Shown: in pieces, positions 6,657-20,509 of the stretch | Position numbering within the stretch: position 1 is the stretch's first letter | Layout of the letters: every line of letters begins with the position of its first letter | Assembly (NCBI GenBank): GCA_048886645.1 | Contig: JBHLKN010000016.1 | Location: 5,904-29,903, forward strand | Direction of reading: 5' to 3' | Origin: Candidatus Hodarchaeota archaeon | GTDB lineage: Archaea > Asgardarchaeota > Wukongarchaeia > Wukongarchaeales > Wukongarchaeaceae | DNA length: 24,000 nucleotides | Position numbers and translations under genes: made by a program | The notes under the pieces: model-generated | Database searches by the model: none | Told to the model about the DNA's origin: nothing | What the model saw: only the letters and a program-made list of their open reading frames with translations

Positions 6657-8039
6657 ATGGGTTTTAAAAACAAAGCGGTTTTAACAACAGTCTTATTTCT
6701 CTTCATTATGTTTTCCACATCTTTTTCTCACTCATTATCTAAAATTGAATCTAATCCCACGGAAAGGGAATCAATTTCCGATACCACGATACCTGAACCC
6801 GAAGATATTAAGGTTCTTGTAAATTTTGCTGCAAACGTATCTCAATATATTAACAAAACATCTGCAAGCATATTTTTAGATATGTTAGAAAATGAAACCG
6901 GTTTCGATCTCACAGTTTGGGAGAATGAAACTGTTTTTAGGACAAGTTTTACATCCATTGATTTGCAATTTTATGACGTTTTTATTCTCTTTGTTCACTC
7001 CAATTTGACTTTTACAGAGAATGCAATTAATGCATTGAAAGACTTTGTTAAAGAAGGTAAAACCCTTATGATATGTCATGCTCCAGAAAGTACAAACACC
7101 ACGACCAATATCAACAATGTGATCCAATATTTTGGCTTCAAATTCCTTGAAAATGTAACAGTAATAGATCCAGTAAATTTTGAGGACACAAACACCTCAA
7201 TAATAGCCCCATTCTTCTTAGATCAAATCCCTCAAACCCATGTTTTAAACCAAGAAAACGCCTTCCTAATATACCGTGGCATACCCATAATCACCAACAG
7301 TTCCTTAATAAACTCCACGAAACTTGAAGTAGTTGATCATTATAACTTAACATGGGCAAACGTTACCGCTTTTGCTGATAAAAACAATAACTCAGTAAAA
7401 GATTCAGGAGATATTAATGGAACGGATGTAGTTTTAGGCGTTTGCGCTGAAACAGAAAATCAGGGAAGATTTATAGGAATAGGCTCTGTTGCAATGTTTA
7501 ACAACACCTATACAAATGCCACTGGCAATTTTAGCGCTTATGAAAACCTGATGTTTGCCAATGAAACGATAAAATGGCTTGCAAAACTTACGGGCTTAGT
7601 ACTTTATGAGGATATGACCACAGATAAAGAGAAGATAACTTATGGGGAGCAGGTGAATGTTTCTGTAATAATCGAAGACGAAAACATGGAAGAAATCGTA
7701 GCAATAAACGCAAGCATCATAGTACACAAAATCGCCACAATGAACATAACAATGTTAAATATTAGTAGAACGGGAAAACAGTTCCACGCTGCCTATAACT
7801 CCACAACTTTTGAGGAAGCTGGAACGGTAGAATTTTCGGCAAACAGTTCAAAGGTTCGCGGATACACAAACATCACAACATATCCATGGATCATAGTAGA
7901 CGTTTTCCCAAAAGAAACTCCTCGAACATCTTTAAACTCCACCGCTTTAATACTCATAACCATGGCTACAATAGTAACCCTTGCAGGTCTTGGAGCTTAT
8001 GCCTTTAGAATAGCCCGTCTAAAAAAGCGCGAAAAATAA
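6657..8039 (+). CDS. Secreted, C-terminally membrane-anchored, heavily N-glycosylatable surface protein
   Basis: N-terminal signal-like segment AVLTTVLFLFIMFSTSFS. There are 26 N-X-S/T sequons by hand count in 460 aa. The C-terminal TM helix ALILITMATIVTLAGLGAYAF is followed by the basic tail RIARLKKREK. The segment YDVFILFVHSNLTFTENAINALKDFVKEGKTLMICHA looks like a ThuA/DUF4350-type flavodoxin-like module (weak). Confidence 0.75.
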   Translation: MGFKNKAVLTTVLFLFIMFSTSFSHSLSKIESNPTERESISDTTIPEPEDIKVLVNFAANVSQYINKTSASIFLDMLENETGFDLTVWENETVFRTSFTSIDLQFYDVFILFVHSNLTFTENAINALKDFVKEGKTLMICHAPESTNTTTNINNVIQYFGFKFLENVTVIDPVNFEDTNTSIIAPFFLDQIPQTHVLNQENAFLIYRGIPIITNSSLINSTKLEVVDHYNLTWANVTAFADKNNNSVKDSGDINGTDVVLGVCAETENQGRFIGIGSVAMFNNTYTNATGNFSAYENLMFANETIKWLAKLTGLVLYEDMTTDKEKITYGEQVNVSVIIEDENMEEIVAINASIIVHKIATMNITMLNISRTGKQFHAAYNSTTFEEAGTVEFSANSSKVRGYTNITTYPWIIVDVFPKETPRTSLNSTALILITMATIVTLAGLGAYAFRIARLKKREK

Positions 8040-8876: not shown

Positions 8877-10214
8877 ATGCATAAGCACGGGGAGAAATTA
8901 CCCCTCATCTCAGCTGGCTTTAAATATCTCCTTAAGAAATTAAATAGTGGTGAAACTTTGAGGTTCAAGAAAAGTATATTGCTTAACTGTCTGCCTTTAA
9001 CTGCTAAAAAAGAACAGATTCTCGATAGTTTTTTTATTGAATATCTCGAAGTCCTCAATAAAACCCTTAAACATTTACCGGAGGCCAAGTCTTCTACCGA
9101 ACTGCACCATCTAACATATTCAAACATACGCAAAACATCCTTCCTTCCATCTGATATTATCCAAGAAGCTCGAAAGGATGTTTGGGCTAAGAGAAAAACT
9201 GTTAAGAGCGGTTTTAAAGGATGCTCTATCAGACTTAATAAAAGGTGGTTCAGACTCTTTGAAACTTTTAGAGGTACTCCGTGTTTCAAGATCACTTATT
9301 CTCCTCGCAAAAGCTTTGTAATCCCTGTTAAGCTTGACAAAGGTTATGAGAGGTTCAAAGAGTTTCTTGAAGATAGTTGGAAAATTAAGTGCATTTCCCT
9401 CCTTAATGGTGGCAAGATTGCGGTTTGTATTGAGAAAGATTTTCCCGAACCTTCTAATAAAAAAAGAAGATATATTATTGGGATCGATATCGGTTCTTCC
9501 ACCCTTGCGGCGGTAACTGTTTTTGATTCTAACACTTATAAAGTAGCTAAACAACTTTACTTTGGAAGAGGCGTCGCTAAAAGTCAGAGGAGATACGAAG
9601 AAAGAAGGGGTAAACTTCAAAGTTATGCTGATAAAGGCTCTAAAAAAGCCAAGAAATACTTGAGAAGGATTAAAATTAAACAGAGAAACTTTGTTAAGAC
9701 AAGAAGCGGGCAGATAGCTAAGGAAATTGTTAATCTTGCCCTTGAGAATAACGCTTCTATTTCAATTGAAAAGCTTAGTATTAGGGGGAAGAAGCGTAAG
9801 TTTAACAGGAAGGCTAACAGGAAGATTAACCGCATTCCTTACGCTCAGTTCAGAGAGTTTCTTAAAAGTAACTGCATTAAACACGGTATCCCTCTTCGCG
9901 AAATTGATTCTTACCACACTTCCAAATGGTGTCCTCACTGCGGTGCAGTAAACAAAGGACGCTCATCTCCTAACTACGCTTTGTATATCTGTAAGAACTG
10001 CGGTTTGGTTGTGAATAGCGATAGAAAAGCCTCCTTGGCTATAGCTATAAAATCCCTCTTGCAGCAGACATCAAACCAAGGCTTCAAAAGACCTTCTTTT
10101 GTCCAGATTTCCAAGAGAAGAGTCCCTGTAAACGGACTCGTTCATCCAGATGATGAGGGTTTGAGTTTTGCTGTACAACATATCACCCCTCAAATGGAAA
10201 GCTCCTTCCGTTAG
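8877..10214 (+). CDS. tnpB: TnpB/OrfB RNA-guided-nuclease-type transposon protein (RuvC + zinc ribbon)
   Basis: 445 aa with RuvC-I YIIGIDIGSSTLA (D), RuvC-II ASISIEKL (E), zinc ribbon CPHCG...CKNCG and RuvC-III VVNSDRKASLAIA (D). The N-terminal half is typical of the archaeal OrfB_IS605 type. Confidence 0.9.
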   Translation: MHKHGEKLPLISAGFKYLLKKLNSGETLRFKKSILLNCLPLTAKKEQILDSFFIEYLEVLNKTLKHLPEAKSSTELHHLTYSNIRKTSFLPSDIIQEARKDVWAKRKTVKSGFKGCSIRLNKRWFRLFETFRGTPCFKITYSPRKSFVIPVKLDKGYERFKEFLEDSWKIKCISLLNGGKIAVCIEKDFPEPSNKKRRYIIGIDIGSSTLAAVTVFDSNTYKVAKQLYFGRGVAKSQRRYEERRGKLQSYADKGSKKAKKYLRRIKIKQRNFVKTRSGQIAKEIVNLALENNASISIEKLSIRGKKRKFNRKANRKINRIPYAQFREFLKSNCIKHGIPLREIDSYHTSKWCPHCGAVNKGRSSPNYALYICKNCGLVVNSDRKASLAIAIKSLLQQTSNQGFKRPSFVQISKRRVPVNGLVHPDDEGLSFAVQHITPQMESSFR

Positions 10215-10805: not shown

Positions 10806-12407
10806 TTGAGGACGAGAGATGGTCGCAATGGCGAAGTTGTTCATTGTGCTTTTTGTGGTGATGCATTTTCTATAGATCTTCTGCTTTTTTGCAGAAGTTG
10901 TGGCGCGATTATCTGTTGTAAATGCTTGAAAAGGGATTATTTCAAAGCGTTTTTCTGTAGTTATTGTTCTGCCCTCGTCCCAGAAGAGACTATTTTCTGC
11001 CCTGTTTGTAGACGTAGAAGTGAAAAAAAACAGGGAAATACCACCATCAGGATGTGTCCTAGTTGTCTTTCTAGAGATATCCATCCGGTAATCGAGGAAA
11101 GAAAATTTTTAGTTATTTCCTTCCGTGACCTAGTATTAAAGTTGAGACATGAGTTTACAAATATAGCAGACTTTGTTTCAGTCTTTAACTCTGTTATAAA
11201 TCGGGGAATTTTACTGCGTAAAAATAACTTTTTACACTATCCGATTATTGAACGGTCATTGAACGATATCCATAAAGGTTTTCCGACTTGCTTAAAAGAA
11301 CTTGAAGAAGTAACCACTTATACGGCAAGAAGCCTCGCGCAACATGTTCTCGCCTTCTCCCGACCTACCCAAATGAGTCCCCTTGATCTAAAAGCTAATT
11401 TTACAGTTCGAAAAACATTATCAGACGAAGTAGAAGTTTTTGAAAATCTAGTCTCGCGAAAATTAGGCTTTTTTTCCGATCGTTTAAAACAGGCTGAAAG
11501 ATCTGTGAAAAGGATGGAAAAAACAAAGACTGTTTTTGATAAATTATCAAGGTTCATCGAGATAATGCCAGGTGAATCGCCTGTTTACATATATCGATAT
11601 AAAAAAATTGCTAACACTCCAAGAAACATCAATCTAAAAAAAGGCAGAGGATATATTATTTTAACAGATCAACGAATAATTTTTGTGCCCCTAAAAGGGA
11701 TAAATCTCAAAACTGGAGAGAAAAGCCAGACTGATTCATCAAACTTTTACGCTTTAGATCTTGAAAAAACTCACATGATAGACGTGACAAAACACTTTTT
11801 TTCACGTAAAAAAGTGATTTTTAGGACCGAGGAAGGCGAGTACGTGTTTTTATTTTCTACAAGAGAAGTTGGTAGACTTAAAGACGCTTTCAAGTTTTCT
11901 AAGAAATATCATGATTACACTTCCAAAAATAGTTCTTTTCTCGAACAATTAGCCCGTGATAAAATAAATATAGACCCCTTCAAAAAGAGAATTGAAAAAT
12001 ACATCGATCATATTCTTTTCCCGCTTGGTTTAAGCCAAAAACAAATCTTCGGAGATATTAAAGACGATTATTACCCGTTTGATTTCGTTGATTTTTCAGA
12101 TATAACCCATTTGGAAAATAATTATCACGCGATTATCAAAGTTTTAAACAAACTGGATGAAAAATTTCAAAGAGGCGAAATAAACAGCCCCGAATATATG
12201 CGTCAAATGAATTATTATAGAAATCTTTTAGAAAGTAATTATTACGGGATTATCAAAGTGTTAAACGCTCTCCATGATAGATTTGAAAGAGGTGAAATAA
12301 ACGGCCCTGAATATATGCGGAACATCAAACATTATAATCAGCAAAAGTTTATTATTAGAAGAGAATTAGAACGTAGAAAAGCACGCTTTGGGAGTCCATT
12401 CGCATAA
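10806..12407 (+). CDS. Multidomain protein: N-terminal FYVE/PHD-spaced Cys8 zinc finger plus an extra zinc ribbon, helical linker, GRAM/GLUE-like PH domain, two SHOCT-like C-terminal repeats
   Basis: CAFCGDAFSIDLLLFCRSCGAIICCKC...CSYC has FYVE spacing (compare EEA1 [28 protein letters not shown]...CDAC) but lacks the basic RRHH motif. Further CPVC...CPSC follows. KGRGYIILTDQRIIFVP ... KKVIFRTEEGEYVFLFSTREVGRLKDAFKF fits the GRAM/PH pattern. The 40-aa repeats IIKVLNKLDEKFQRGEINSPEYMRQ and IIKVLNALHDRFERGEINGPEYMRN are SHOCT-like. TTG start. Confidence 0.8.
   Translation: MRTRDGRNGEVVHCAFCGDAFSIDLLLFCRSCGAIICCKCLKRDYFKAFFCSYCSALVPEETIFCPVCRRRSEKKQGNTTIRMCPSCLSRDIHPVIEERKFLVISFRDLVLKLRHEFTNIADFVSVFNSVINRGILLRKNNFLHYPIIERSLNDIHKGFPTCLKELEEVTTYTARSLAQHVLAFSRPTQMSPLDLKANFTVRKTLSDEVEVFENLVSRKLGFFSDRLKQAERSVKRMEKTKTVFDKLSRFIEIMPGESPVYIYRYKKIANTPRNINLKKGRGYIILTDQRIIFVPLKGINLKTGEKSQTDSSNFYALDLEKTHMIDVTKHFFSRKKVIFRTEEGEYVFLFSTREVGRLKDAFKFSKKYHDYTSKNSSFLEQLARDKINIDPFKKRIEKYIDHILFPLGLSQKQIFGDIKDDYYPFDFVDFSDITHLENNYHAIIKVLNKLDEKFQRGEINSPEYMRQMNYYRNLLESNYYGIIKVLNALHDRFERGEINGPEYMRNIKHYNQQKFIIRRELERRKARFGSPFA
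12117..12356 (+). repeat. Intragenic 120-nt (40-codon) tandem duplication encoding the two SHOCT-like modules
   Basis: NNYHAIIKVLNKLDEKFQRGEINSPEYMRQMNYYRNLLES is followed by NYYGIIKVLNALHDRFERGEINGPEYMRNIKHYNQQKFII. The similarity is also visible at the DNA level (attatcaaagt[t/g]ttaaac..., agaggcgaaataaacagccccgaatatatgcg versus agaggtgaaataaacggccctgaatatatgcg). Confidence 0.85.
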
Positions 12408-12607: not shown

Positions 12608-13300
12608 TTATTGGGAAGACGATTCTAATTGTTTTTTTAGAAGTTTTAGCTCCTTTTCTACTTCTGCTTCTTCTGCTTCCAGTTTTTCTTTGTCTACTAC
12701 ACGGGTTTCTTTTGGTCTTTCTACGGAGGTTCTGGATACGGGTTCAGTAGTTACTGCTTCTGCTCCCACAAGTTGCTTTTCCATAGCGGCGATCTCTGCA
12801 TCAATAGCGTCTTCTATTTCTAGCTCAAGTTCTGCTTCGGCAGAAGTAACATCAGCAAGGGCTTCATCAGCCATAGAAGCCCTTTCCATCCCCTCTTCAA
12901 GACGTACCATAAGTTCTTCTGTTACTTCCGGTCCCACTTCCCTCAAACCCTCATTTATAACTATATCTGCCTCTCTGAGAGCGCCACTAAGCTCAATATT
13001 ATCTTTCACAGTTTCGATGGTCTCTATTATACGATTCATGTTAAGGATTTTATTCTCTGTACTTTCAAGCTTCTTAAGGTAAAGCTGTCTCCTCAATAAA
13101 GATTTTTTTGCTCCCATCTTATTGCCATCACGAAGCATTTCCATAGCTAACGAACGTTGTTCATCCGCTTTACGCCTTATGGCCCTTGATTTAAGTTCAA
13201 AACGATTTATAACAGCCCTAAGCTTAGCTATGGTTTCTGATGGTTTTCTTCTTTTATCCCCAAAGAGAAAATTCTTAATGCCCATTATCAAAATCTCCAT
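12608..13300 (-). CDS. ESCRT-III protein, Snf7 family (Vps20/32/60 = CHMP4-7-like)
   Basis: The N-terminus MGIKNFLFGDKRRKPSETIAKLR resembles CHMP6/Snf7 N-termini. A basic helical hairpin (RKADEQRSLAMEMLRDGNKMGAKKSLLRRQLYLKKLE) is followed by an acidic C-terminal half and the terminal amphipathic helix EKELKLLKKQLE. ATG at 13300 or 13285. Confidence 0.85.
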   Translation of the reverse strand: MEILIMGIKNFLFGDKRRKPSETIAKLRAVINRFELKSRAIRRKADEQRSLAMEMLRDGNKMGAKKSLLRRQLYLKKLESTENKILNMNRIIETIETVKDNIELSGALREADIVINEGLREVGPEVTEELMVRLEEGMERASMADEALADVTSAEAELELEIEDAIDAEIAAMEKQLVGAEAVTTEPVSRTSVERPKETRVVDKEKLEAEEAEVEKELKLLKKQLESSSQ

Positions 13301-13417
13301 CTAAAAAATACTGAAGACAAACAACAATCACTTAAACTATTTTTTTATTAGTCTTAAGGATTATTTTTCCTAATGTATTAAAGATAGCTGTAACTAAAAA
13401 GGGTTTCTATTTTTCTA

Positions 13418-16141
13418 TTATGTTCTTCCTTCAATTACTCTTTTTAATTCAGAAACAACAGAAAGATTCGGAGGACTTATCGTAAATACAATTTCAAGAC
13501 CATCCTCTAAAAGAGCAAAAATAATCCCAAGTTTCATCCCTCCTCTGTCAAAAATAACCGTAGGAAACTTCTCATCTTCCTGGATCTTTACTATTTTCCA
13601 CTCAACGTCCCTAATGCGTGAAATAACAATAGAGGCACTATTTGACCCTGTTAAACCTAATTTTATCGAGGAAACCTCGTAAGGTAGAATCCTACCGTCC
13701 TTGCTTTTTGCCACGGCGTCGGTAAAATGGGGATACAAAAGTTTACGTTTTAAAAAATCTTTAAGGAGACTTTTCGGCACATCACTCGGAGATATAATTG
13801 AAATCCCTCTCATAACATCAGTCTCATCCTCCACCATAACCTTTACTTCACTAGGAGGAGTAGGAGCTTCAACATCAATATCGACCATACCCTCTTCCTC
13901 TAGAACTTCGGAAACAAGTTCCAGAACCTCTTCAATGGGGGATGGTTCGGGTTTTTCCTCCATCTTCGGCCTGGCTTCTCTCCCAGCATGCATAGAAGAC
14001 CTAGCCCTTATCGCTACAACAATCGCCCTATCCGACTCTTTATCAGAAACTATGGCGACTCCTACCGGGAGTCTTCTTACAAAATCCGCGCTTTTTAACT
14101 CATCAGGTATAGGGGAAGGCGCACGTTTTATATACGCTTTCACATCATCTTCATAGGTTAAAGTGTGCACAATCATTAAATCCGCTTGGGATAATACCCT
14201 TGGATCTGTTGCACTTGGTTGTTGAGTACAAACTAACAAGGCGCAACCTGGTTTCCGTCCTTGTTTCGCATATTCAACTATGGGTATGCTTGCTGCTGTT
14301 TCCTTTCTTGAAGGTACAAGAAGGTGTGCTTCATCTATCGCAAGCCAAGTAAAAGGTATTTCCTCCCTTCTCATCTCTTGGACTTCTTTCCCCACCTCTA
14401 CTAACATTTCTTCTGTTTCCTCATACCTTGCAGCTTTTGTCCTCTCTCTAAGGATTTTACGCGCTAGTATACCCACAAAAAGTGCACGCAAACCCTCCCC
14501 TAACCTCGGATGGCTGACATCAATAACCGTTACCTGATTTGGAACGCTCAACTCTGTTAAAGGCGTGCCCACTTCAGCAAAAACCCCCCACTTTTTCGCA
14601 GAATTAAGCCTTGCAACCGCCGCTCTCTGCGTAGTTCTTGAAAATCCTACAGTCTTTGACGATATATCAACATCCCTTTCAATACACCTTGTTAAGTCAT
14701 CAATAGTGAAGTTTTCCTTCCCTTCAACCGCTACTTGTTCGCCTTCTTCAAATTCAGCTATATAGCCTTTCTTCGCTTTATCTATAGCTTGAGCTATAAG
14801 CAGTCCTTGGGGTCCAAACCTATCAATCCCAAAAGAGTGGCACCAATCATCAACTGAAAGCTCAGAAGCAGATATTGAAAACCTAGCGTCCCAACTTTCA
14901 GGGGGAAAATCAGAAGCAAGCTCTATCGGCACATACACCTTAGTATTCGGGTAACCCTTGGGTCTCATACCCCACTTTTCAAGGATCTCGATCTCTTTCT
15001 TCTCAACATTGCAATGTTTCATAGAATAAAAAACGCCTAGAGGATCAATTACTATGATTCCTATACCCAGATTCGATCGCGCTAACTCTTCAGCCAAAAC
15101 CCCCATCGTATAACTCTTACCACTACCCCTATGACCGCAAATAAAAACAACGTACGGAAAACCAGCGTTAATAACAACAGACTTTCCATAAATCTCTTCC
15201 ATCTCCCCGACATCGCTTGTTTTCATACCCTTTTCTGCAACCCTCCCTATGAAAAGGGCTCCTTTACATCCTACACCTTTCTTTACTTTAAACTTTTTAC
15301 CTAAAACCACTGCATCTTTTAACGGCGTATACCTCGGCTTTGAAGGAGCTTTTACGAGATACTTCCTTTCCTCAAGCAGTTTCGACCAATAACTATCCAA
15401 TCCTTCGCTAACCAGAAGCTCCCCTTCTACCGCTCCAAAACCCCACCTTAACCACTCAACTTCCTCCTTCCCTTCCATTCTTTTCGCTATCTCGTTCCTT
15501 GAAACAATCTCTGCGGGATAAAATTTCGGATCACAACCACTAACGTCCCATAAAATAATGTCTAACTTCACGTTTAAATCTTTAAAAGCTCCCTCATTAT
15601 CGCCCTTATTAAGCGAAGCGAGCGAACTATAAGCTTTTTCTAAAAGATCTTTCTCCTGGGTTACAATATAGAGGGCGCATAGACCCCTAACCTTATTTTC
15701 CCCTTCTAATCCTTCAGTGATTTTCTGGGCTATAGCCAAATCTTCTTCTTTTTCTGTTAAAAGATAGGAAAAAGATAAACCCATAACTGCTGGCCAATCC
15801 TTTCCTTCTTTACGGAAAAACTCTGAAGCGTTTTCAAAAATTTCTTTTTGAACCTCCACAACTTCCCTTGCATAAAATAAAGCTCTTAAAGAATGGGCGG
15901 AAAAAAGCTCTAAATCATCCCCTTCTTCTGTAAAGAAGCTTCCATCTGCTTCCTGCCGTGTTAAAAGCCCAAATACTACCTCTTGCATTCTTGCTTTAAT
16001 CCATTCCTCTCCAGTAACTTTGTAAGCATGAAATAACGCTTCAAAAAAAGAAGGACGAACCCTCTCTTCCACTCGATCCAATCTCTCTAAACTCTCAGTG
16101 AGGGGTGGAAGTATCTGACATAAAGGCCTTCCTATCTCCAA
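13418..16141 (-). CDS. 907-aa HerA/FtsK-superfamily (COG0433/DUF87-like) P-loop ATPase with novel N- and C-terminal domains
   Basis: Walker A FICGHRGSGKSYTMG (about 15113-15136) and Walker B FTWLAIDEAHLLVP. HerA-type distal motifs are KQGRKPGCALLVCTQQPSATDPRVLSQADLMIVHTL and RARSSMHAG. The N-terminal ~290 aa are helical repeats (one QEADGSFF terpenoid-cyclase/prenyltransferase-like turn). An acidic linker precedes a ~130-aa alpha/beta C-terminal domain. TTG start (uncertain). Confidence 0.85.
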   Translation of the reverse strand: MEIGRPLCQILPPLTESLERLDRVEERVRPSFFEALFHAYKVTGEEWIKARMQEVVFGLLTRQEADGSFFTEEGDDLELFSAHSLRALFYAREVVEVQKEIFENASEFFRKEGKDWPAVMGLSFSYLLTEKEEDLAIAQKITEGLEGENKVRGLCALYIVTQEKDLLEKAYSSLASLNKGDNEGAFKDLNVKLDIILWDVSGCDPKFYPAEIVSRNEIAKRMEGKEEVEWLRWGFGAVEGELLVSEGLDSYWSKLLEERKYLVKAPSKPRYTPLKDAVVLGKKFKVKKGVGCKGALFIGRVAEKGMKTSDVGEMEEIYGKSVVINAGFPYVVFICGHRGSGKSYTMGVLAEELARSNLGIGIIVIDPLGVFYSMKHCNVEKKEIEILEKWGMRPKGYPNTKVYVPIELASDFPPESWDARFSISASELSVDDWCHSFGIDRFGPQGLLIAQAIDKAKKGYIAEFEEGEQVAVEGKENFTIDDLTRCIERDVDISSKTVGFSRTTQRAAVARLNSAKKWGVFAEVGTPLTELSVPNQVTVIDVSHPRLGEGLRALFVGILARKILRERTKAARYEETEEMLVEVGKEVQEMRREEIPFTWLAIDEAHLLVPSRKETAASIPIVEYAKQGRKPGCALLVCTQQPSATDPRVLSQADLMIVHTLTYEDDVKAYIKRAPSPIPDELKSADFVRRLPVGVAIVSDKESDRAIVVAIRARSSMHAGREARPKMEEKPEPSPIEEVLELVSEVLEEEGMVDIDVEAPTPPSEVKVMVEDETDVMRGISIISPSDVPKSLLKDFLKRKLLYPHFTDAVAKSKDGRILPYEVSSIKLGLTGSNSASIVISRIRDVEWKIVKIQEDEKFPTVIFDRGGMKLGIIFALLEDGLEIVFTISPPNLSVVSELKRVIEGRT

Positions 16142-16251
16142 AAGCCTAACACTCCTATAAAACCAAATAAACCCTAAAAGGCGTTAAGTGATGCCTACTA
16201 TTCTATTCAATGTATAAGGAGAAAAGAGGTTAATAGAACTTTATTAAAGTT

Positions 16252-16872
16252 TCAACTCTCCTCTTCGCGTAAACGTTCTAATTCTTCCTTAATCTCTTTC
16301 TCCCTTGCTGATGGGGTAGGAAGACCGTGTTCTGTAGTTACGCTTACAACCGCCCCTGCTTCCCCAAGAATTCTTGTAACTTCTGCATCGTCAATATCCG
16401 CACTTAAAGCTCCTTCAAGTTCCACATCAATAGCTTCTGTTGAAACTTCAATACCAGTAAGACCTTCTTCTAAAGCATCTATATATCTACTTAGTTGGGG
16501 AAGTCTAAGCGAACGGTTAAGTTGCCTAAGAGATATAGCCAAACCCTTCATATCTTTTGCAAGACTCTGAACAGCCTCCGTATGCTCCATCTTAGCAATA
16601 ATTCCCTTAAGCCTAGAATTCAACCTCGCACAACCCAAAGCAAAACGCCTACTCCTTACAACGTCTTGAGCATAGACTTTCGCAGCCTCCATGTCCCCCT
16701 GTTCTACAGACCTCCTAACCTCTTTCATCATCTTATTCTCGTCCTTCTTCAACTTCATGCGTTGCCTTTCAATCCTACGTTCTATCAACCTAAGGCGAAT
16801 AATCCAATCACGAGTACTACGACCACCCATCAACCAATTAACAAACTTACCGAAAACCAATGAAATCACCAA
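16252..16872 (-). CDS. ESCRT-III protein, Vps2/24/46 (CHMP1-3-like) family
   Basis: IERRIERQRMKLKKDENKMMKEVRRSVEQGDMEAAKVYAQDVVRSRRFALGCARLNSRLKGI matches the CHMP2/Vps2 alpha1-alpha2 hairpin pattern. The C-terminal half is acidic and ends in EIKEELERLREEES (MIM1-like). Hydrophobic N-terminus SLVFGKFVNWL. Start is TTG 16872, GTG 16869 or ATG 16830. Confidence 0.85.
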   Translation of the reverse strand: MVISLVFGKFVNWLMGGRSTRDWIIRLRLIERRIERQRMKLKKDENKMMKEVRRSVEQGDMEAAKVYAQDVVRSRRFALGCARLNSRLKGIIAKMEHTEAVQSLAKDMKGLAISLRQLNRSLRLPQLSRYIDALEEGLTGIEVSTEAIDVELEGALSADIDDAEVTRILGEAGAVVSVTTEHGLPTPSAREKEIKEELERLREEES

Positions 16873-16942
16873 CTATTCTTATAATATTAATATTGTTTAA
16901 AATATATTAAGGATTACCGTTCCTAAAAATATCTTTAATCTA

Positions 16943-17641
16943 TCATATTTTTAAAGCTTTTATAATCTCTGAGGGAAAACCTTTTTGCGTAATCTTTTCA
17001 AAGTTAACAATCTTGAAACCTACATACTCCACAAAGGGTTTTACTTGAACTGAACGACAACCACCTATTGTGTGAGGGAAAAACCGGTATAAAAGGGACC
17101 AAAAAGCGTTGAAGATAGGATTTCCACAAGTCATGTTCACTAAAACCATGCGCCCTCCTTTTCTCATAACCCGATTAAACTCTCGTAAAATAGGGAAAAA
17201 ATCCTTTACAGGGATTAAATCAAGCATATAGCTATTAATAACAACATCAAAAGCTTCATCTGTAAAAGGAAGACTACGAGCATCTGCCATCAAAAACTCA
17301 TAACTCTCCCTTGCAGCATCCTTCACTCTTTTCTTAGACATTCTAAGCATTTTACCCGAAATATCAACTCCTACATTCAATCCTTCTTCATTCATTTTCA
17401 AAATTTCAGAAAAATTCTTACCAGTGCCACAAGCCACTTCCAAAACCTTTTCCCTCCCTTTAATTTCAACTAAAGAGAGAGCCCTACTATGAGCCTTTGA
17501 TTCCGCAAACCGGCTCCAAAAATCGTAATGAGGCGCAAGGATATCGTAAGTCCGGGCAACCTCTTTTTTTGAAACTTTTGCTTTAAGCATATAAGACACC
17601 TCTTTTAACACAATATCTATATTCGTAATATGATGATTCAT
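16943..17641 (-). CDS. Class I SAM-dependent methyltransferase (UbiE/Methyltransf_11-like)
   Basis: Motif I VLEVACGTGKN, post-I GVDISGKML and motif II/III FDVVINSYML ... GGRMVLVN. The gene is co-oriented with and immediately upstream of the ESCRT-III / ATPase / ESCRT-III string. Confidence 0.82.
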   Translation of the reverse strand: MNHHITNIDIVLKEVSYMLKAKVSKKEVARTYDILAPHYDFWSRFAESKAHSRALSLVEIKGREKVLEVACGTGKNFSEILKMNEEGLNVGVDISGKMLRMSKKRVKDAARESYEFLMADARSLPFTDEAFDVVINSYMLDLIPVKDFFPILREFNRVMRKGGRMVLVNMTCGNPIFNAFWSLLYRFFPHTIGGCRSVQVKPFVEYVGFKIVNFEKITQKGFPSEIIKALKI

Positions 17642-17713
17642 TTTTTTTACATTTAATTTTTATAAAATATTGAACTAATATGTAAATAATAAGTTAATTC
17701 TTTCTATCAGTTT

Positions 17714-18880
17714 GTGATAGCAATGTCAAAAGGTCGTCAGAAAGAGCTTTCAGCCATGCAGGAGCTTCATCAATATGTCATTTCTTATGCTAAGAAAGCT
17801 ATTGAGCACGAGAAGAAAGGTCAGAAAAAAGCGGCTTTAGACAACTATATTAAAGCTGTGGAAATTCTTAATAAGATGATTAGGTGGGCTCCAACGCCTG
17901 AGCAAAAAGAGGCTTACTATAAAAAAGCTAAGACATATCTTTCTAGGGCTTGGGAGATTAGAAAGGAGCTGAAAGCGCCTAGAGGAGAGATAAGTGCGGA
18001 AAAAGGAGAGTTAAGTGCTGCTATTCAAGATGCTATAATCACGGAAAGGCCTACGATAAAGTGGGATGATGTTGCTGATTTAGAGTCTGCTAAGCAAGCT
18101 TTAAGAGAGGCGATAATCCTCCCGTTATTACGCCCTGATCTATTTAAAGGGGCTCGTAAACCTTGGAAGGGCGTCTTATTATTTGGACCACCGGGTTGCG
18201 GTAAAACCCTCTTAGCTAAGGCGGTTGCTTCCGAATGTGATGCCACTTTTTTTAATGTTAGTGCCGCTACTTTAGTTTCAAAGTGGTTAGGGGAGTCTGA
18301 GAAGCTTGTAAGGGAACTTTTCAAGTTTTCAAGAGAAAAACAGCCTTCAATAGTTTTCTTTGACGAAGTTGATGCTATAGCTACTACGAGGGGAGGGACA
18401 GAACACGATGCCATTAGGCGGGTGAAACTTCAATTAATGCAAGAAATGCAAGGGTTGATGTCTGATAGCGAGCAGATGGTCGTAATTGGGACGACTAATA
18501 TTCCCTGGCATATTGATCCTGCCTTTAGGCGTAGGTTTGAAAGGCGGATTCTAGTTCCCCTTCCTGGAAAGGAGGCAAGGGAACAGATTTTCAAGATTCA
18601 TACCAGGGATGTAGAATTGGATGAAAGCGTAGACTTTAGCCTTCTTTCAGAGATAACTGAAGGGTTTTCTGGGGCAGATATTGAAATAGTTTGCCGAGAA
18701 GCGATTATGAATCCTGTAAGAGAAATGGATAAAAGCGGTCTATTGAAGGATAAAGAAGCAAAAATAAGACCTGTTACAATTGGAGATTTCGAAAAAGCTC
18801 TTCAAAAAATAAAACCCACAGTAGCCCCAGAAGAACTCCTTGCCTACGAAGAATGGCAACAAGAATTTGGAAGCGTTTGA
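17714..18880 (+). CDS. vps4: Vps4-type AAA+ ATPase (N-terminal MIT domain + single AAA cassette)
   Basis: MIT-like three-helix region AKKAIEHEKKGQKKAALDNYIKAVEILNKMI...YYKKAKTYLSRAWEIRKEL. Walker A GPPGCGKT, Walker B IVFFDEVD and SRH/arginine fingers TNIPWHIDPAFRRRFERRI. The likely start is ATG 17723 (the track ORF begins at GTG 17714). Confidence 0.94.
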   Translation: MIAMSKGRQKELSAMQELHQYVISYAKKAIEHEKKGQKKAALDNYIKAVEILNKMIRWAPTPEQKEAYYKKAKTYLSRAWEIRKELKAPRGEISAEKGELSAAIQDAIITERPTIKWDDVADLESAKQALREAIILPLLRPDLFKGARKPWKGVLLFGPPGCGKTLLAKAVASECDATFFNVSAATLVSKWLGESEKLVRELFKFSREKQPSIVFFDEVDAIATTRGGTEHDAIRRVKLQLMQEMQGLMSDSEQMVVIGTTNIPWHIDPAFRRRFERRILVPLPGKEAREQIFKIHTRDVELDESVDFSLLSEITEGFSGADIEIVCREAIMNPVREMDKSGLLKDKEAKIRPVTIGDFEKALQKIKPTVAPEELLAYEEWQQEFGSV

Positions 18881-18883
18881 ATT

Positions 18884-19618
18884 TTGAGAAAGAGAAAAAC
18901 AGGAATATTGAAAAAGTGGCATGAAATAGCTGAAAAATTTGCAAAGGAAACAGATGTCCAATTAGAAGATCGCATTATTTTTTCATGGGATAATTTCAAA
19001 GAAAGGATTCTTTCTTTGAAAAATCGTTTGGGGTTTAGTGGTGAAACTTTAGACTTTTTGGGCTATTCGGTTGATCTAAACACTGGGGGCGTAGTTGACC
19101 GTTTACTTGACTATACCTTGGATAAAAATCCTTTTGTCAGTTATCTGGCTTATTATTCTGAATCTTTTGAGACTGTTTTGGATGAGGATAGGTGGATTAA
19201 GTTCCGGCATTTGCCTGGCGGTGTATCGTTTGAAAATGCTTTTAGGGTTCAGGTTGAGGGATGGATTTTAAACCGTTTTTTAGAAGATGATGAAGACATT
19301 TTGAGAGATGAGAAGATAGCAGAAAAGGCTTTAGTTTTAATCGGGGCTAAGCGTGAGAAGTTTGGCGATTTTTCCTTTTCTATTAACACCTTGCCCCGTG
19401 TAACGCTTGCCGTTGTTTATAATGAAGGTGTTGAAGAGTTTGAGCCAAATGTTTCGGTTTTTTTTAAAGAATCTGCTCAATATTACCAGCCTACCGAGCT
19501 TCTAGCTCACCATGGAGTACTGCCTATGGTTGCTTTTGAACGGGCTAGAAGAGCGGTTTTAGGCTTTGAAGAAAGCGGTTTGCCGCAGTTTATTAGTAAA
19601 TATTTACGGTTTGATTAA
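18884..19618 (+). CDS. Uncharacterised protein, DUF3786-like by motif pattern; starts 4 nt after the vps4 stop
   Basis: 244 aa with a TTG start 4 nt after the vps4 stop codon. WIKFRHLPGGVSFENAF and FGDFSFSINTLPRVTLAVVYNEGVEEFEPNVSVFFKESAQYYQPTELLA recall the DUF3786 pattern (..W.GDEEF....lFD.sa..yl.tEdl), recalled from memory. The basic N-terminal helix is MRKRKTGILKKWHEIAEKFAK. Confidence 0.6.
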   Translation: MRKRKTGILKKWHEIAEKFAKETDVQLEDRIIFSWDNFKERILSLKNRLGFSGETLDFLGYSVDLNTGGVVDRLLDYTLDKNPFVSYLAYYSESFETVLDEDRWIKFRHLPGGVSFENAFRVQVEGWILNRFLEDDEDILRDEKIAEKALVLIGAKREKFGDFSFSINTLPRVTLAVVYNEGVEEFEPNVSVFFKESAQYYQPTELLAHHGVLPMVAFERARRAVLGFEESGLPQFISKYLRFD

Positions 19619-19750
19619 AACGCAAAAAAAGGGATAAGCAGGAAATTGAGAAGGTGGTTTTTTTGTGGATTTATTTAAGTATGAGGGGGAGTATATAATT
19701 AATATATGAGTTCTATTAAACTGGTAAGATTTTTGAAGGTGTAGCGTGGT

Positions 19751-20509
19751 ATGGAAAGAGTGGAGGAAAAGGATGAGAAGGTTAAAAAGAAAGAAGAGGA
19801 TGTTGAGGAGGAAGAAGAAGAAGAGCTTGGAGAACTTGATGAATTGTTAAGTGAACTGGAAGTTGAGCTTGAGAGTTTAGAAAGCGTTGAAGCCCCTTCT
19901 ATTGAGGAGGAAGTTGTTGAGGAAATTGTCGTAGTGGAGCGTCCTCCTGTTGTAGAGGAAAAGGAAAGGGAGGAAAGGCGTGTTTCTGAGGCTATTAAAG
20001 AGATATTGCCTCCTTGGATTGATAAGCCTTGGATGTATATAAAGCCTGAAAAAGCCGATCATTTAGAGAGTTGGTTGAATGATTGGGGGGATTTTTTGGT
20101 TGATTTGTGTCGGGTGATGGTTAAGCATGTAGTTAATTTAATGCATTTGAGGTCTAGGTTTCCGTTTAAAAATCCAATTTGTAAGAAAAATCTTACTCTT
20201 AATCATATGCAGGATGTTGGGGAGTATTTGGTGTCTAGTGAGAGGGCTGCTTGGTGGGATTCGGGGAGGCTAAGGTTGCGGGTTTATTGGATGGCTCTTG
20301 AGGAGTGGGCGGAGGAAATCTTTCAGTGGGCTTTTGAGCGTGGTGAAACAGTGGTCACGTTTTTTGATCTTGTTAACGCAGGGGAACGTTGGAGTTCATT
20401 GCCTCCAAGAGATTTGAAAGCTGTTTGTGAGATTTTAGTAAAAAAAGGACAAGCTCGCTGGCTTGATGATAAGAAGAAGTCGTTAGAGTTTAGGTTTTTC
20501 GATGTATAA
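19751..20509 (+). CDS. vps25: ESCRT-II subunit Vps25 (EAP20) homolog with ~80-aa polyacidic N-terminal extension
   Basis: FKNPICKKNLTLNHMQDVGEYLVSSERAAWWDSGRLRLRVYWMALEEWAEEIFQWAFERGETVVTFFDLVNAGE...LKAVCEILVKKGQARWLDDKKKSLEFRFF aligns with human VPS25. The human sequence is FNNVKLQRKLPVESIQIVLEELRKKGNLEWLDKSKSSFLIMWRRPEEWGKLIYQWVSRSGQNNSVFTLYELTNGE...LRALQALQQEHKAEII..GRGVKFF. LPPWIDKPWMY sits where the eukaryotic PPxF/Y motifs lie. Confidence 0.85.
   Translation: MERVEEKDEKVKKKEEDVEEEEEEELGELDELLSELEVELESLESVEAPSIEEEVVEEIVVVERPPVVEEKEREERRVSEAIKEILPPWIDKPWMYIKPEKADHLESWLNDWGDFLVDLCRVMVKHVVNLMHLRSRFPFKNPICKKNLTLNHMQDVGEYLVSSERAAWWDSGRLRLRVYWMALEEWAEEIFQWAFERGETVVTFFDLVNAGERWSSLPPRDLKAVCEILVKKGQARWLDDKKKSLEFRFFDV

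Follow-up and report, generated by a model that had tools for sequence, protein, structure and literature searches.

Gene clusters that combine ubiquitin and ESCRT components in Asgard archaea were reportedly presented by Spang in 2015 and by Zaremba-Niedzwiedzka in 2017. ESCRT clusters of Asgard archaea are known from published work (Hatano 2022, PMC9192718; Makarova 2024, PMC11188069), so that the presence of one more is not new; by itself, the locus discussed here is one further Asgard example and alters nothing. It lies in a 24-kb stretch of DNA, termed the window throughout, on a contig of an Asgard MAG whose public labels are split between Hodarchaeota and Wukongarchaeota. Proteins that are 99-100% identical to those of the window carry Asgard labels at NCBI. 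Practically beyond doubt, the region is an Asgard ESCRT locus; as the core claim of the first-pass annotation of this DNA had it, Vps4, the ESCRT-II protein Vps25 and an ESCRT-III protein of either class are encoded, with profile scores above curated cut-offs.

The window shares its gene families and local logic with the described Asgard clusters. The Vps4 and Vps25 genes point the same way, ESCRT-IIIA and ESCRT-IIIB are each encoded once, and steadiness-box proteins are encoded nearby; the core order is the same in the locus of Hel_GB_B (Hatano, Fig. 1C, PMC9192718; our L017). In contrast to these clusters, no Vps22/36, Vps28, UEV-Vps23 or ubiquitin gene is found within the 24 kb, as had been stated for Vps22/36 and ubiquitin, and a methyltransferase gene and a DUF3786 gene are interposed in the window's lineage only. 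The Cdv system of Thermoproteota (CdvA/CdvB/CdvC) likewise employs ESCRT-III and a Vps4-type ATPase for membrane scission. It differs from the window, where none of the 20 ORFs scanned matches CdvA, where Vps25, a steadiness-box protein and ESCRT-III of two eukaryote-like classes are encoded, and where the scores stay below the Cdv thresholds. The statement that ESCRT-II and the split of ESCRT-III are hallmarks of eukaryotes and Asgard archaea is put more softly here, because ESCRT-I/II-like proteins are now reported outside Asgard (PMC11188069).

ESCRT components of the locus

The four ESCRT genes named in the first-pass annotation are all present at the positions that it had given, to which Table 1 adds the strands; the Vps4 and Vps25 genes run divergently from the ESCRT-III genes. 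The profile families Snf7, MIT, AAA, Vps4_C and ESCRT-II were all recovered above their cut-offs. TnpB elements are inserted both in and near the locus.

Table 1. Features of the ESCRT locus, in positions of the window.
Feature	Position	Strand	Basis
Znr_PH_CC_SB-type protein, 533 aa, putative Asgard ESCRT-I-like component	10806..12407	+	Vps23_core, motif HMM, alignment
ESCRT-IIIB (Vps20/32/60, Snf7/CHMP4-7 class), 230 aa	12608..13300	-	Pfam Snf7 and best PDB matches
HerA-like FtsK/HerA-superfamily P-loop ATPase (DUF87), 907 aa	13418..16141	-	Pfam DUF87, Foldseek
ESCRT-IIIA (Vps2/24/46, CHMP1-3 class), 206 aa	16252..16872	-	Pfam Snf7 and best PDB matches
Class I SAM methyltransferase (UbiE/COQ5-like), 232 aa	16943..17641	-	Pfam Ubie_methyltran, 72.5 bits
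Vps4 (MIT, single AAA+ module, Vps4_C)	17714..18880	+	Pfam MIT, AAA, AAA_lid_3, Vps4_C above cut-offs
DUF3786 protein, 244 aa	18884..19618	+	Pfam DUF3786, 70.3 bits
ESCRT-II Vps25, 252 aa	19751..20509	+	Pfam ESCRT-II PF05871

Both ESCRT-III proteins match Pfam Snf7 (PF03357; cut-off 27.3 bits), ESCRT-IIIB at E=5.4e-12 and 46.1 bits and ESCRT-IIIA at E=5e-13 and 49.5 bits. The top solved relative of ESCRT-IIIB is ESCRT-IIIB of Heimdallarchaeota AB_125 (9ftl, 1.1e-28), followed by a "Vps20/32/60-like" protein and yeast Snf7, and the PDB search returned no Vps2/24/CHMP1 match for this protein. ESCRT-IIIA is closest to CHMP2A (4.4e-14) and CHMP1B (1.2e-11)/CHMP1A, followed by CdvB, Vps24 and CHMP3, with no Snf7/CHMP4 match in its PDB search. 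The two match lists are mutually exclusive and bear out the proposed split into two classes, the assignment being one of best-hit patterns rather than of a phylogenetic tree. The public annotation of ESCRT-IIIB begins at Met6 (225 aa; gene call in L001). By eye, the ESCRT-III C-termini, EKEIKEELERLR (ESCRT-IIIA) and EVEKELKLLKKQLE, look like acidic amphipathic helices of MIM1-like character.

Vps4 possesses all three defining parts of the claimed MIT-AAA enzyme above the Pfam cut-offs, with 44.8 bits for MIT (cut-off 30), 144.5 bits for AAA and 44.6 bits for Vps4_C (cut-off 21.3). The Walker A motif GPPGCGKT, the Walker B motif FFDEVD and the pore loop KWLGESE can be read in the sequence. The public gene call (L001/L002) of 385 aa starts 9 nt downstream of the GTG-started ORF listed in Table 1, and the ATG at 17723, giving 385 aa, is the likely start. 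Vps25 matches Pfam ESCRT-II (PF05871) at E=2.6e-17 and 63.8 bits (cut-off 27). An acidic, Glu-rich N-terminal extension (residues 1-90), which has no counterpart in human VPS25, precedes tandem winged-helix domains (92-249). Residues 92-249 match the crystal structure of Odinarchaeal Vps25 (7pb9, 2.5e-23, residues 15-171 of the 179-residue chain) and residues 93-211 match human VPS25 (3cuq_C, 4.6e-8). The identification as Vps25 therefore holds, but the end-to-end alignment with human VPS25 that had been asserted is confined to the C-terminal ~160 residues.

The gene upstream of ESCRT-IIIB had been called FYVE/PH, and ESCRT-I had been said to be missing from the window. The gene is real, and the label is replaced here: the 533-aa ORF shows the architecture of Znr_PH_CC_SB, an Asgard family (asCOG cog.011556) regarded as a likely ESCRT-I component (Makarova et al. 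2024, PMC11188069), and is a putative ESCRT-I-like component on this basis. Six CxxC pairs (residues 14-87), conserved in the alignment and sufficient for three Zn sites, are followed by long helical stretches, a candidate PH-like beta domain (~261-386) and a C-terminal steadiness box. This layout and the gene position adjoining the ESCRT-III genes are those of the family, while the duplication of the steadiness box (435-471 and 473-528) sets the window protein apart. Its PH domain is weakly supported, and its membership of the asCOG is presumed from the published description. The protein aligns with Jord/Frey homologues adjoining ESCRT-IIIB. It scores E=5.6e-5 and 23.5 bits against Pfam Vps23_core, under the cut-off of 26.8, and its FYVE match is weak. 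A steadiness-box motif HMM matches both repeats, as well as the steadiness box of one Asgard UEV-Vps23 protein at 3e-13 and a VPS28 protein at 2.6e-3. The family profile matches the yeast Vps23 cores (2p22_A, 2.7e-4; 2caz, 1.6e-3; 2f66, 1.8e-3) and also RING/B-box fingers; the Vps36 GLUE domain is reached only at E=0.9. For the PH region, a Jord homologue matches bPH_3 weakly (E=0.005). The AF2 model, built on a shallow alignment of four sequences, is of poor quality (pLDDT 49); its secondary structure fits the family layout, with several beta strands and then a helix at 261-386, and its best Foldseek matches, DH-PH tandems at E about 2e-3, are at best suggestive.

All four genes that the first-pass annotation had left uncharacterised are real, and two of them are most likely unrelated neighbours. 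The methyltransferase, which reaches no cut-off of the NCBIfam equivalogs, is missing from the Jord/Frey/Hel ESCRT loci and, in L088, from the interval between Vps4 and ESCRT-IIIA, though the HerA-like protein of that locus is 90% identical; it is probably a passenger gene outside the ESCRT system. A gap of 3 nt lies between the Vps4 stop codon and the DUF3786 gene, which was seen in close relatives only (L001, L002, L006, L088). In L088 it is parted from Vps4 by an intervening TnpB gene; L014 and L017 lack it, with Vps4 and Vps25 overlapping directly. The suggestion that both genes are accessory components is not sustained, their linkage being conserved in close relatives only.

The HerA-like ATPase and its genomic position

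The 907-aa protein encoded between the two ESCRT-III genes matches Pfam DUF87 with 48.5 bits (cut-off 23.2). It comprises an all-helical N-domain (1-258), a beta region (277-335), the ATPase core (336-712), an acidic disordered linker (714-783) and an alpha+beta C-domain (790-904). Walker A (GHRGSGKSYT) and Walker B (IDEAH) are invariant across 17 homologues. The AF2 model is only moderate (pLDDT 66); its top Foldseek matches are HerA of T. kodakarensis, S. solfataricus and D. radiodurans (6.7e-11 to 1e-9), with TrwB and VirB4 among the neighbours and FtsK as a weak match (E=1.7e-3). No transmembrane segment is predicted, and the protein is predicted to be soluble. The N-domain is confined to its own family in a search among 1.84 billion representatives, and profile searches with the N- and C-domains against PDB and Pfam gave nothing significant. 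(alpha/alpha)6-toroid enzymes (GH76, LanC, epimerases) as a model for the N-domain fold (E>=0.01) and NikR for the C-domain (E>=0.2) were insignificant and were set aside. No recognised DNA-binding or MIT/MIM element was found in the protein. The Jord/Frey proteins carry an additional conserved C-terminal helix; it is a weak candidate for a steadiness box, with E about 1e-3 in a 13-sequence search and no match in a search of 2,649 ORFs.

The P-loop core of the ATPase is that of the FtsK/HerA superfamily, its Walker A/B motifs are intact, and its best fold matches are the hexameric HerA DNA translocases. It is nevertheless a distinct family of the superfamily and not HerA proper, which in archaea is the translocase that works with NurA in DNA end resection: against the NCBIfam HerA equivalogs it reaches 37-38 bits where the cut-offs are 800-970, NurA, Mre11 and Rad50 were not found as neighbours in any Pfam-scanned locus, and the helical N-domain of ~260 residues and the C-domain of ~115 residues are unique relative to HerA and FtsK. 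The ATPase gene is placed among division/scission genes, in analogy to bacterial FtsK; the ATPase differs from FtsK in having no transmembrane anchor and matches its structure weakly.

The first-pass annotation had treated this gene as unusual and as possibly lineage-specific. On the contrary, it recurs at the same position in the ESCRT loci of at least three deep Asgard lineage groups. Every full-length homologue with readable flanks lies in the order ESCRT-IIIA > HerA-like > ESCRT-IIIB on one strand. The lineages concerned are the Jord-, Frey- and Helarchaeia, Hel_GB_B included, and that of the window, and the ATPase is 35-41% identical between lineage groups. The order is kept in the window and L001 of its lineage; in Jordarchaeales L003, with a 5-bp gap from ESCRT-IIIA to the ATPase; in Helarchaeota L004/L005 and L017, the latter with VPS28, Vps25 and Vps4 also present; in L006/L007; in the Frey/Jord loci L008, L009, L011 and L012; in L013, where UEV-Vps23 and Vps4 are also present, and L016; and in the metagenome loci L088-L091 and L095. 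The contig-end loci L002, L010, L014, L015 and L130 agree as far as their sequence extends. In two loci the HerA-like gene begins 5-6 bp past the end of ESCRT-IIIA. The genes outside the cassette differ entirely: TauE and the proteasome in Jord, Sec61-beta and PolD in Hel, PolB in the window.

As a control, ~140 loci with short-form homologues of the core (DPANN, Thor, Eury) were inspected, none of which has an ESCRT-III neighbour, counted as an ORF matching the ESCRT-III HMM at E<=1e-4 within 5-6 kb. The clustered neighbours of short forms in DPANN and similar genomes represent housekeeping synteny (TrpRS, DnaG, XPD-like helicase) and gave no functional clue. Of the scanned records titled Loki, Odin, Thor or Heimdall, none yielded a full-length form, the Thor matches being short forms; the ATPase is thus not required for ESCRT function generally. 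No mention of a HerA-like gene between ESCRT-III genes was found in the Asgard ESCRT literature searched. A prior report is possible, and the fixed position of the ATPase between ESCRT-III genes across distant Asgard lineages looks new.

Proposed mechanism and alternative readings

From eukaryotic and Asgard homologues, Vps25 would be expected to nucleate the Snf7-like ESCRT-IIIB on the membrane (Hatano 2022, PMC9192718); Asgard Vps25 and ESCRT-IIIB interact in a two-hybrid assay in the same study. By the same homologies (PMC9192718), ESCRT-IIIA would co-polymerise with ESCRT-IIIB, and the MIT domain of Vps4 would bind the ESCRT-III C-termini, so that the polymer is remodelled and the membrane constricted and cut. 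Using its PH-like and zinc-binding domains, the steadiness-box protein probably provides an input upstream of these steps. The HerA-like ATPase is, with reasonable likelihood, a functional partner of the two ESCRT-III proteins and not a passenger. We infer this from the place that its gene keeps, on the same strand, between those of ESCRT-IIIA and -IIIB in three Asgard lineage groups that diverged deeply, gene order being the sole link between the ATPase and ESCRT-III.

FtsK clears DNA at the bacterial septum. In a comparable manner, the HerA-like ATPase may be a ring-shaped, ATP-driven translocase of the HerA/FtsK type, which its family-specific N- or C-terminal domains would bring to ESCRT-III assemblies and which would move DNA out of the constricting neck. 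This DNA-clearing role, proposed by analogy, is tentative and has well under an even chance of being right. An association of ESCRT-III and Vps4 with chromatin has been reported for Asgard archaea (bioRxiv 10.1101/2021.11.29.470303), which makes a link to DNA plausible. A slightly less probable proposal is that the ATPase works with ESCRT-III on protein rather than DNA, either as a second remodelling or assembly motor beside Vps4 or as a coupling ATPase of the VirD4/TrwB type that loads cargo into ESCRT-dependent vesicles. The conserved cassette synteny supports it equally. The structural neighbours TrwB and VirB4 act in protein/DNA secretion, and the ATPase, predicted to be soluble, combines a long acidic linker with two domains that are specific to its family and probably bind protein; the extra Jord/Frey helix is also weakly like the steadiness-box/SHOCT motif of the neighbouring ESCRT-I-like protein. 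On the other side, the closest solved relatives are HerA-type DNA translocases, neither an MIT domain nor any other module known to bind ESCRT-III was found, and the same loci already contain Vps4.

HerA relatives also act in DNA repair, conjugation and anti-phage defence. The ATPase, perhaps together with the methyltransferase, might accordingly belong to an unrelated module, a MADS-like/HerA-type defence system or a DNA-repair helicase, which we consider improbable. PADLOC matches the ATPase core to mad8 at 1.5e-15 and to several defence HerA models, and the methyltransferase to mad2 at 1.8e-16; the TnpB insertions indicate a region tolerant of insertions. These PADLOC matches are, however, limited to the generic P-loop and SAM-binding cores, no further mad gene, NurA, Sir2 or DUF4297 nuclease partner is adjacent, and a complete gene set (mad1-8, or HerA with a Sir2/DUF4297 effector) was sought with domain-level matches as the only result. 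The methyltransferase is absent from Jord, Frey, Hel and even L088, the HerA equivalog cut-off is not approached (37.9 versus 800 bits), and the exact slot is kept at 35-41% identity among otherwise unshared flanks, unlike in defence islands. That the whole locus is a Cdv-type TACK division system or eukaryotic contamination of the assembly has next to no probability. A weak NCBIfam likeness to CdvB and CdvC does exist, as expected of any ESCRT-III/Vps4 pair, but the scores are 19.7 versus 370 bits for CdvB and 325 versus 650 bits for CdvC, and none of the 20 window ORFs scanned matches CdvA. Vps25 and the steadiness-box protein are present, and the best structural matches are to Asgard proteins. 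The contig has a compact, prokaryote-like layout and archaeal flanking genes (CofC/CofD, DnaG, PolB, TnpB), and recurs in several Asgard MAGs; both origins were rejected on the Cdv scores, the Asgard relatives and the archaeal neighbours.

Taken together, the window is very probably best explained as an Asgard ESCRT locus with the HerA-like ATPase as a likely partner of ESCRT-III, DNA clearing being the likeliest, though tentative, mechanism.

Significance of the cassette

The annotation of the 533-aa ORF is corrected to an ESCRT-I-like steadiness-box protein, and the cassette marks a recognisable subtype of Asgard ESCRT loci. The HerA-like gene sits uncommented in published loci used for biochemistry, namely that of Hel_GB_B. 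A bolder proposal, which we regard as rather unlikely, is that Hel-, Jord- and Freyarchaeia and the Hod/Wukong-labelled lineage possess an unrecognised fifth ESCRT-associated activity, a HerA/FtsK-superfamily ring motor that its family-specific domains would hold on the ESCRT-III polymer and that would clear or segregate DNA through the closing neck. If true, chromosome segregation would be physically coupled to ESCRT-mediated scission, and the ATPase would correspond in archaea to FtsK and would foreshadow, in function, the way in which chromatin and ESCRT-III are coordinated when eukaryotic cells undergo abscission and seal the nuclear envelope. Asgard cells also possess FtsZ. The cassette offers a concrete, testable candidate for what ESCRT does in Asgard cells and for how scission and the chromosome are coordinated.

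The ESCRT core and a putative ESCRT-I-like adaptor

Pfam scans of the open reading frames (ORFs) in and around 12608-20509 recover every family that the first-pass annotation had named there. By their matches among solved structures, the two ESCRT-III proteins fall cleanly into separate classes. Those of the 230-aa protein are Heimdallarchaeota AB_125 ESCRT-IIIB (1.1e-28), a Vps20/32/60-like protein and yeast Snf7, and those of the 206-aa protein are CHMP2A (4.4e-14), CHMP1A/B, Vps24 and CHMP3; neither has a cross-class match in this comparison. Residues 92-249 of Vps25 align with the Odinarchaeal Vps25 crystal structure 7pb9 (2.5e-23), and residues 93-211 with human VPS25 (4.6e-8). The first ~90 residues form an extremely acidic, Glu/Val-rich low-complexity extension, which human VPS25 does not possess. 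N-terminal additions are typical of Asgard Vps25 (Makarova et al. 2024, PMC11188069), and the L014 and L017 homologues, from Helarchaeial-type loci, carry still longer ones (354 and 286 aa in total). In these two loci, the Vps4 and Vps25 genes overlap each other, with no gene in between.

Features of the window, with strand and family evidence
Feature	Coordinates	Strand	Evidence
Rpo5/Rpb5, 191 aa	5880-6455	-	two-domain RNA polymerase subunit
OST48-like protein	6657-8039	+	PF03345, 47.9 bits
TPR protein, 235 aa	8093-8800	+	alpha-SNAP, E=8e-4, sub-threshold
TnpB/Cas12f-like	8877-10214	+	OrfB_IS605 + TNB domain
ESCRT-I-like candidate, 533 aa	10806-12407	+	
ESCRT-III, 230 aa	12608-13300	-	Snf7, 46.1 bits (cut-off 27.3)
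HerA-like ATPase, 907 aa	13418-16141	-	DUF87/HerA core (Pfam)
ESCRT-III, 206 aa	16252-16872	-	Snf7, 49.5 bits
Methyltransferase	16943-17641	-	
Vps4	17714-18880	+	MIT + AAA + AAA_lid_3 + Vps4_C, all over Pfam cut-offs
Vps25	19751-20509	+	ESCRT-II/Vps25 PF05871, 63.8 bits (cut-off 27)
Vps25 acidic extension	19751-20020	+	
ORF downstream of PolB, 219 aa	23208-23867	-	

The 533-aa ORF fits the description of Znr_PH_CC_SB (cog.011556), an Asgard-specific family with three zinc ribbons, a PH domain, a coiled coil and a steadiness box that has been proposed as an ESCRT-I component (Makarova et al. 2024, PMC11188069), and is thus a putative ESCRT-I-like protein. Six CxxC pairs lie within residues 14-87, and the low-confidence predicted structure has long helices followed by a beta-rich domain and a helix; the PH domain is weakly supported. 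The duplicated C-terminal motif matches Pfam Vps23_core just under the cut-off (E=5.6e-5), and an HMM of this motif alone matches the steadiness box of an Asgard UEV-Vps23 protein (3e-13) and a VPS28 protein (2.6e-3). The profile of the whole family matches the yeast Vps23 ESCRT-I core (2p22_A at 2.7e-4; also 2caz and 2f66). In the Jord- and Freyarchaeial loci, the homologues adjoin ESCRT-IIIB in convergent orientation. The window thus does contain a steadiness-box adaptor, and the earlier statement that it lacks ESCRT-I has to be corrected accordingly; classical Vps23 and Vps28 genes are indeed absent from it, as are Vps22/36 and ubiquitin genes.

Origin of the window and its neighbouring genes

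The window has a G+C content of 35-44% and dense, prokaryote-style gene packing, and carries archaeal housekeeping genes (GAPDH, DnaG, CofC/CofD, Rpo5/Rpb5 and PolB) besides the TnpB element. The window proteins also score far under the NCBIfam equivalog cut-offs for CdvB and CdvC. The two scenarios that the first-pass annotation had named as refuting, a TACK Cdv system and eukaryotic contamination, are therefore both excluded as far as the tools reach. Vps25 has a 100%-identical counterpart at NCBI, from a 'Candidatus Hodarchaeota archaeon' MAG. L001 and L002, two more assemblies, carry the same locus, and JGI sediment metagenomes (L006, L007, L088) carry it at ~90% identity. Different submitters have given proteins at least 90% identical to P0012, P0013, P0001 and P0074 of this locus the labels Hodarchaeota, Wukongarchaeota or 'Asgard group archaeon'. 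Assignment to the Asgard phylum is safe; class-level taxonomy is unsettled in public records, and a class assignment is not safe. We also note two contigs with typical Asgard ESCRT modules whose filing probably reflects a binning or labelling error: L011 (JAPDJY010000048.1) is filed in a GTDB representative genome titled 'Thermoproteota archaeon', and L013 (DATKTP010000243.1) in one under 'Candidatus Deferrimicrobium sp.', a bacterium.

Among the genes beside the module, Rpo5/Rpb5 has the appearance of a long Rpb5 of the eukaryotic kind, here in an archaeal genome: alignments to archaeal RpoH cover only residues 117-190, those to eukaryotic Rpb5 begin at residue ~54-64, and the N-terminal half matches the restriction-endonuclease-like Mrr_cat (E=1.2e-8). 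The long gene is also present in relatives L006 and L007, where the OST48-like gene, whose product has signal/TM-like ends and many N-x-S/T sites, and the TPR gene directly after it are syntenic; both are potential eukaryotic-signature proteins adjoining the ESCRT locus. The TnpB/Cas12f-like gene, situated between the TPR gene and an 87-aa AsnC-like ORF, is missing at the equivalent spot in L006 and L007. Relative L088 carries a different TnpB copy (1278-2501) between Vps4 and DUF3786, and the separate insertions therefore mark the locus as a recurrent target of IS200/605-type insertions. The 219-aa ORF matches nothing in Pfam, NCBIfam or PADLOC, nor any PDB sequence.

The first-pass annotation had proposed four accessory components, of which the HerA-like ATPase and the 533-aa protein belong to a conserved module, the latter already published as an ESCRT-I-like family. 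The methyltransferase and DUF3786 are probably irrelevant neighbours. Both are restricted to close relatives of the window (L001, L002 and L006, with L088 in addition for DUF3786), and in L088, whose HerA-like protein is 90% identical to that of the window, no methyltransferase lies between Vps4 and ESCRT-IIIA. DUF3786 starts 3 nt past Vps4 and is therefore probably co-transcribed with it in the lineage of the window; no link between DUF3786 and ESCRT was found in the literature searched.

A HerA-like ATPase between the ESCRT-III genes

The 907-aa protein comprises an all-helical N-domain (~260 residues), the ATPase core, an acidic disordered linker and a C-terminal alpha+beta domain, with no transmembrane segment predicted. 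Walker A (GHRGSGKSYT) and Walker B (IDEAH) are invariant across 17 homologues. The best structural matches of its AlphaFold model (pLDDT 66) are HerA hexameric DNA translocases (6.7e-11 to 1e-9), with TrwB, VirB4 and FtsK more distant. The protein is not canonical HerA, as equivalog scores are 37-38 bits versus cut-offs of 800-970 and NurA is not nearby.

Full-length homologues were found in Jordarchaeia, Freyarchaeia and Helarchaeia, with 35-41% identity between lineage groups. The one-strand order ESCRT-IIIA, HerA-like gene, ESCRT-IIIB is observed in every locus with readable flanks (the window, L001, L003-L009, L011-L013, L016, L017, L088-L091 and L095), and contigs that end within the locus are consistent with it as far as they extend. 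The gap between ESCRT-IIIA and the ATPase gene is 5-6 bp in L003 (Jordarchaeales) and L095, and ~110 bp in the window. As in the window, divergent Vps4 and Vps25 are also present in several loci, with VPS28 in the Hel_GB_B locus (L017) and UEV-Vps23 in L013 in addition. The genes flanking the module are unrelated between lineage groups, which argues for selection on the linkage of ESCRT-III and the HerA-like gene rather than residual synteny. None of ~140 loci with short, core-only homologues (from DPANN, Thorarchaeota and Euryarchaeota, together with a short paralogue from the sediment samples of the window's relatives) has an ESCRT-III neighbour within 5-6 kb.

That paralogue (625-658 aa, 39-40% identity; L092-L094, e.g. 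L093 4887-6803) has the C-domain but not the helical N-domain; its neighbours are AlaX-like, M3 peptidase and AFOR genes, with none from ESCRT. This points to the N-domain as the part that links the long form to ESCRT. As the sole query against 1.84 billion representative proteins, this domain matches only members of the same 870-1017-aa family.

In one Jord/Frey subgroup (L008-L010, L012, L089 and L090), the HerA-like gene and ESCRT-IIIB are separated by an extra conserved ORF of 345-355 aa (e.g. L009 8802-9839). This ORF matches nothing in Pfam and may be a further component of the module that is specific to the lineage. The Jord/Frey ATPases (956-1021 aa; L003, L008-L012 and L015, e.g. L009 5720-8785) have at the C-terminus an additional helix that is highly conserved, IQKYLRSLHEYYxLGRMTEEEYxFLKRK. 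It bears a weak likeness to the steadiness-box/SHOCT-like motif in the adjacent Znr_PH_CC_SB protein (E~1e-3, search of 13 sequences).

Possible role of the ATPase in the ESCRT module

The main interpretation of the first-pass annotation, an Asgard-type ESCRT system, is correct yet already known, since Asgard ESCRT clusters are well documented: ubiquitin, ESCRT-I, -II, -III and Vps4 genes cluster and a Vps25-ESCRT-IIIB interaction has been described (Hatano et al. 2022, PMC9192718), and the components have been catalogued across Asgard lineages (Makarova et al. 2024, PMC11188069). The ESCRT-module role of the HerA-like ATPase is apparently undescribed; no mention of HerA, DUF87 or FtsK in the context of an ESCRT locus was found in the ESCRT/Asgard literature searched, and the Hel_GB_B locus had already been drawn in a published synteny figure. 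The interest of the locus is moderate and rests wholly on the HerA-like cassette.

A functional partnership of the ATPase with ESCRT-III is probable. As to its nature, we tentatively prefer a DNA translocase that, by analogy with FtsK, may clear DNA from the closing neck, because the closest folds are DNA pumps and HerA/FtsK motors have long been proposed, reportedly by Iyer and colleagues in 2004, to act in archaeal chromosome segregation. Association of Asgard ESCRT-III/Vps4 with chromatin has also been reported (bioRxiv 10.1101/2021.11.29.470303), in keeping with such a role. A competing reading to be taken seriously, itself a minority possibility, is a motor that acts on proteins or a coupling ATPase. 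It is unlikely that the gene is instead a hitch-hiker from defence or repair. PADLOC MADS models do match the ATPase (mad8 at 1.5e-15) and, next to it, the methyltransferase (mad2 at 1.8e-16), a coincidence of note, but these matches extend only over generic cores and are judged to be generic domain similarity; nor does conservation of the methyltransferase go along with that of the ATPase.

By homology with canonical ESCRT steps, the steadiness-box adaptor and Vps25 would recruit and nucleate ESCRT-IIIB, ESCRT-IIIA would co-assemble with it, and Vps4 would remodel the polymer via MIT-MIM contacts, driving scission. If the likeness of the Jord/Frey C-terminal helix is real, it would physically link the HerA-like ATPase to the ESCRT-I-like headpiece.
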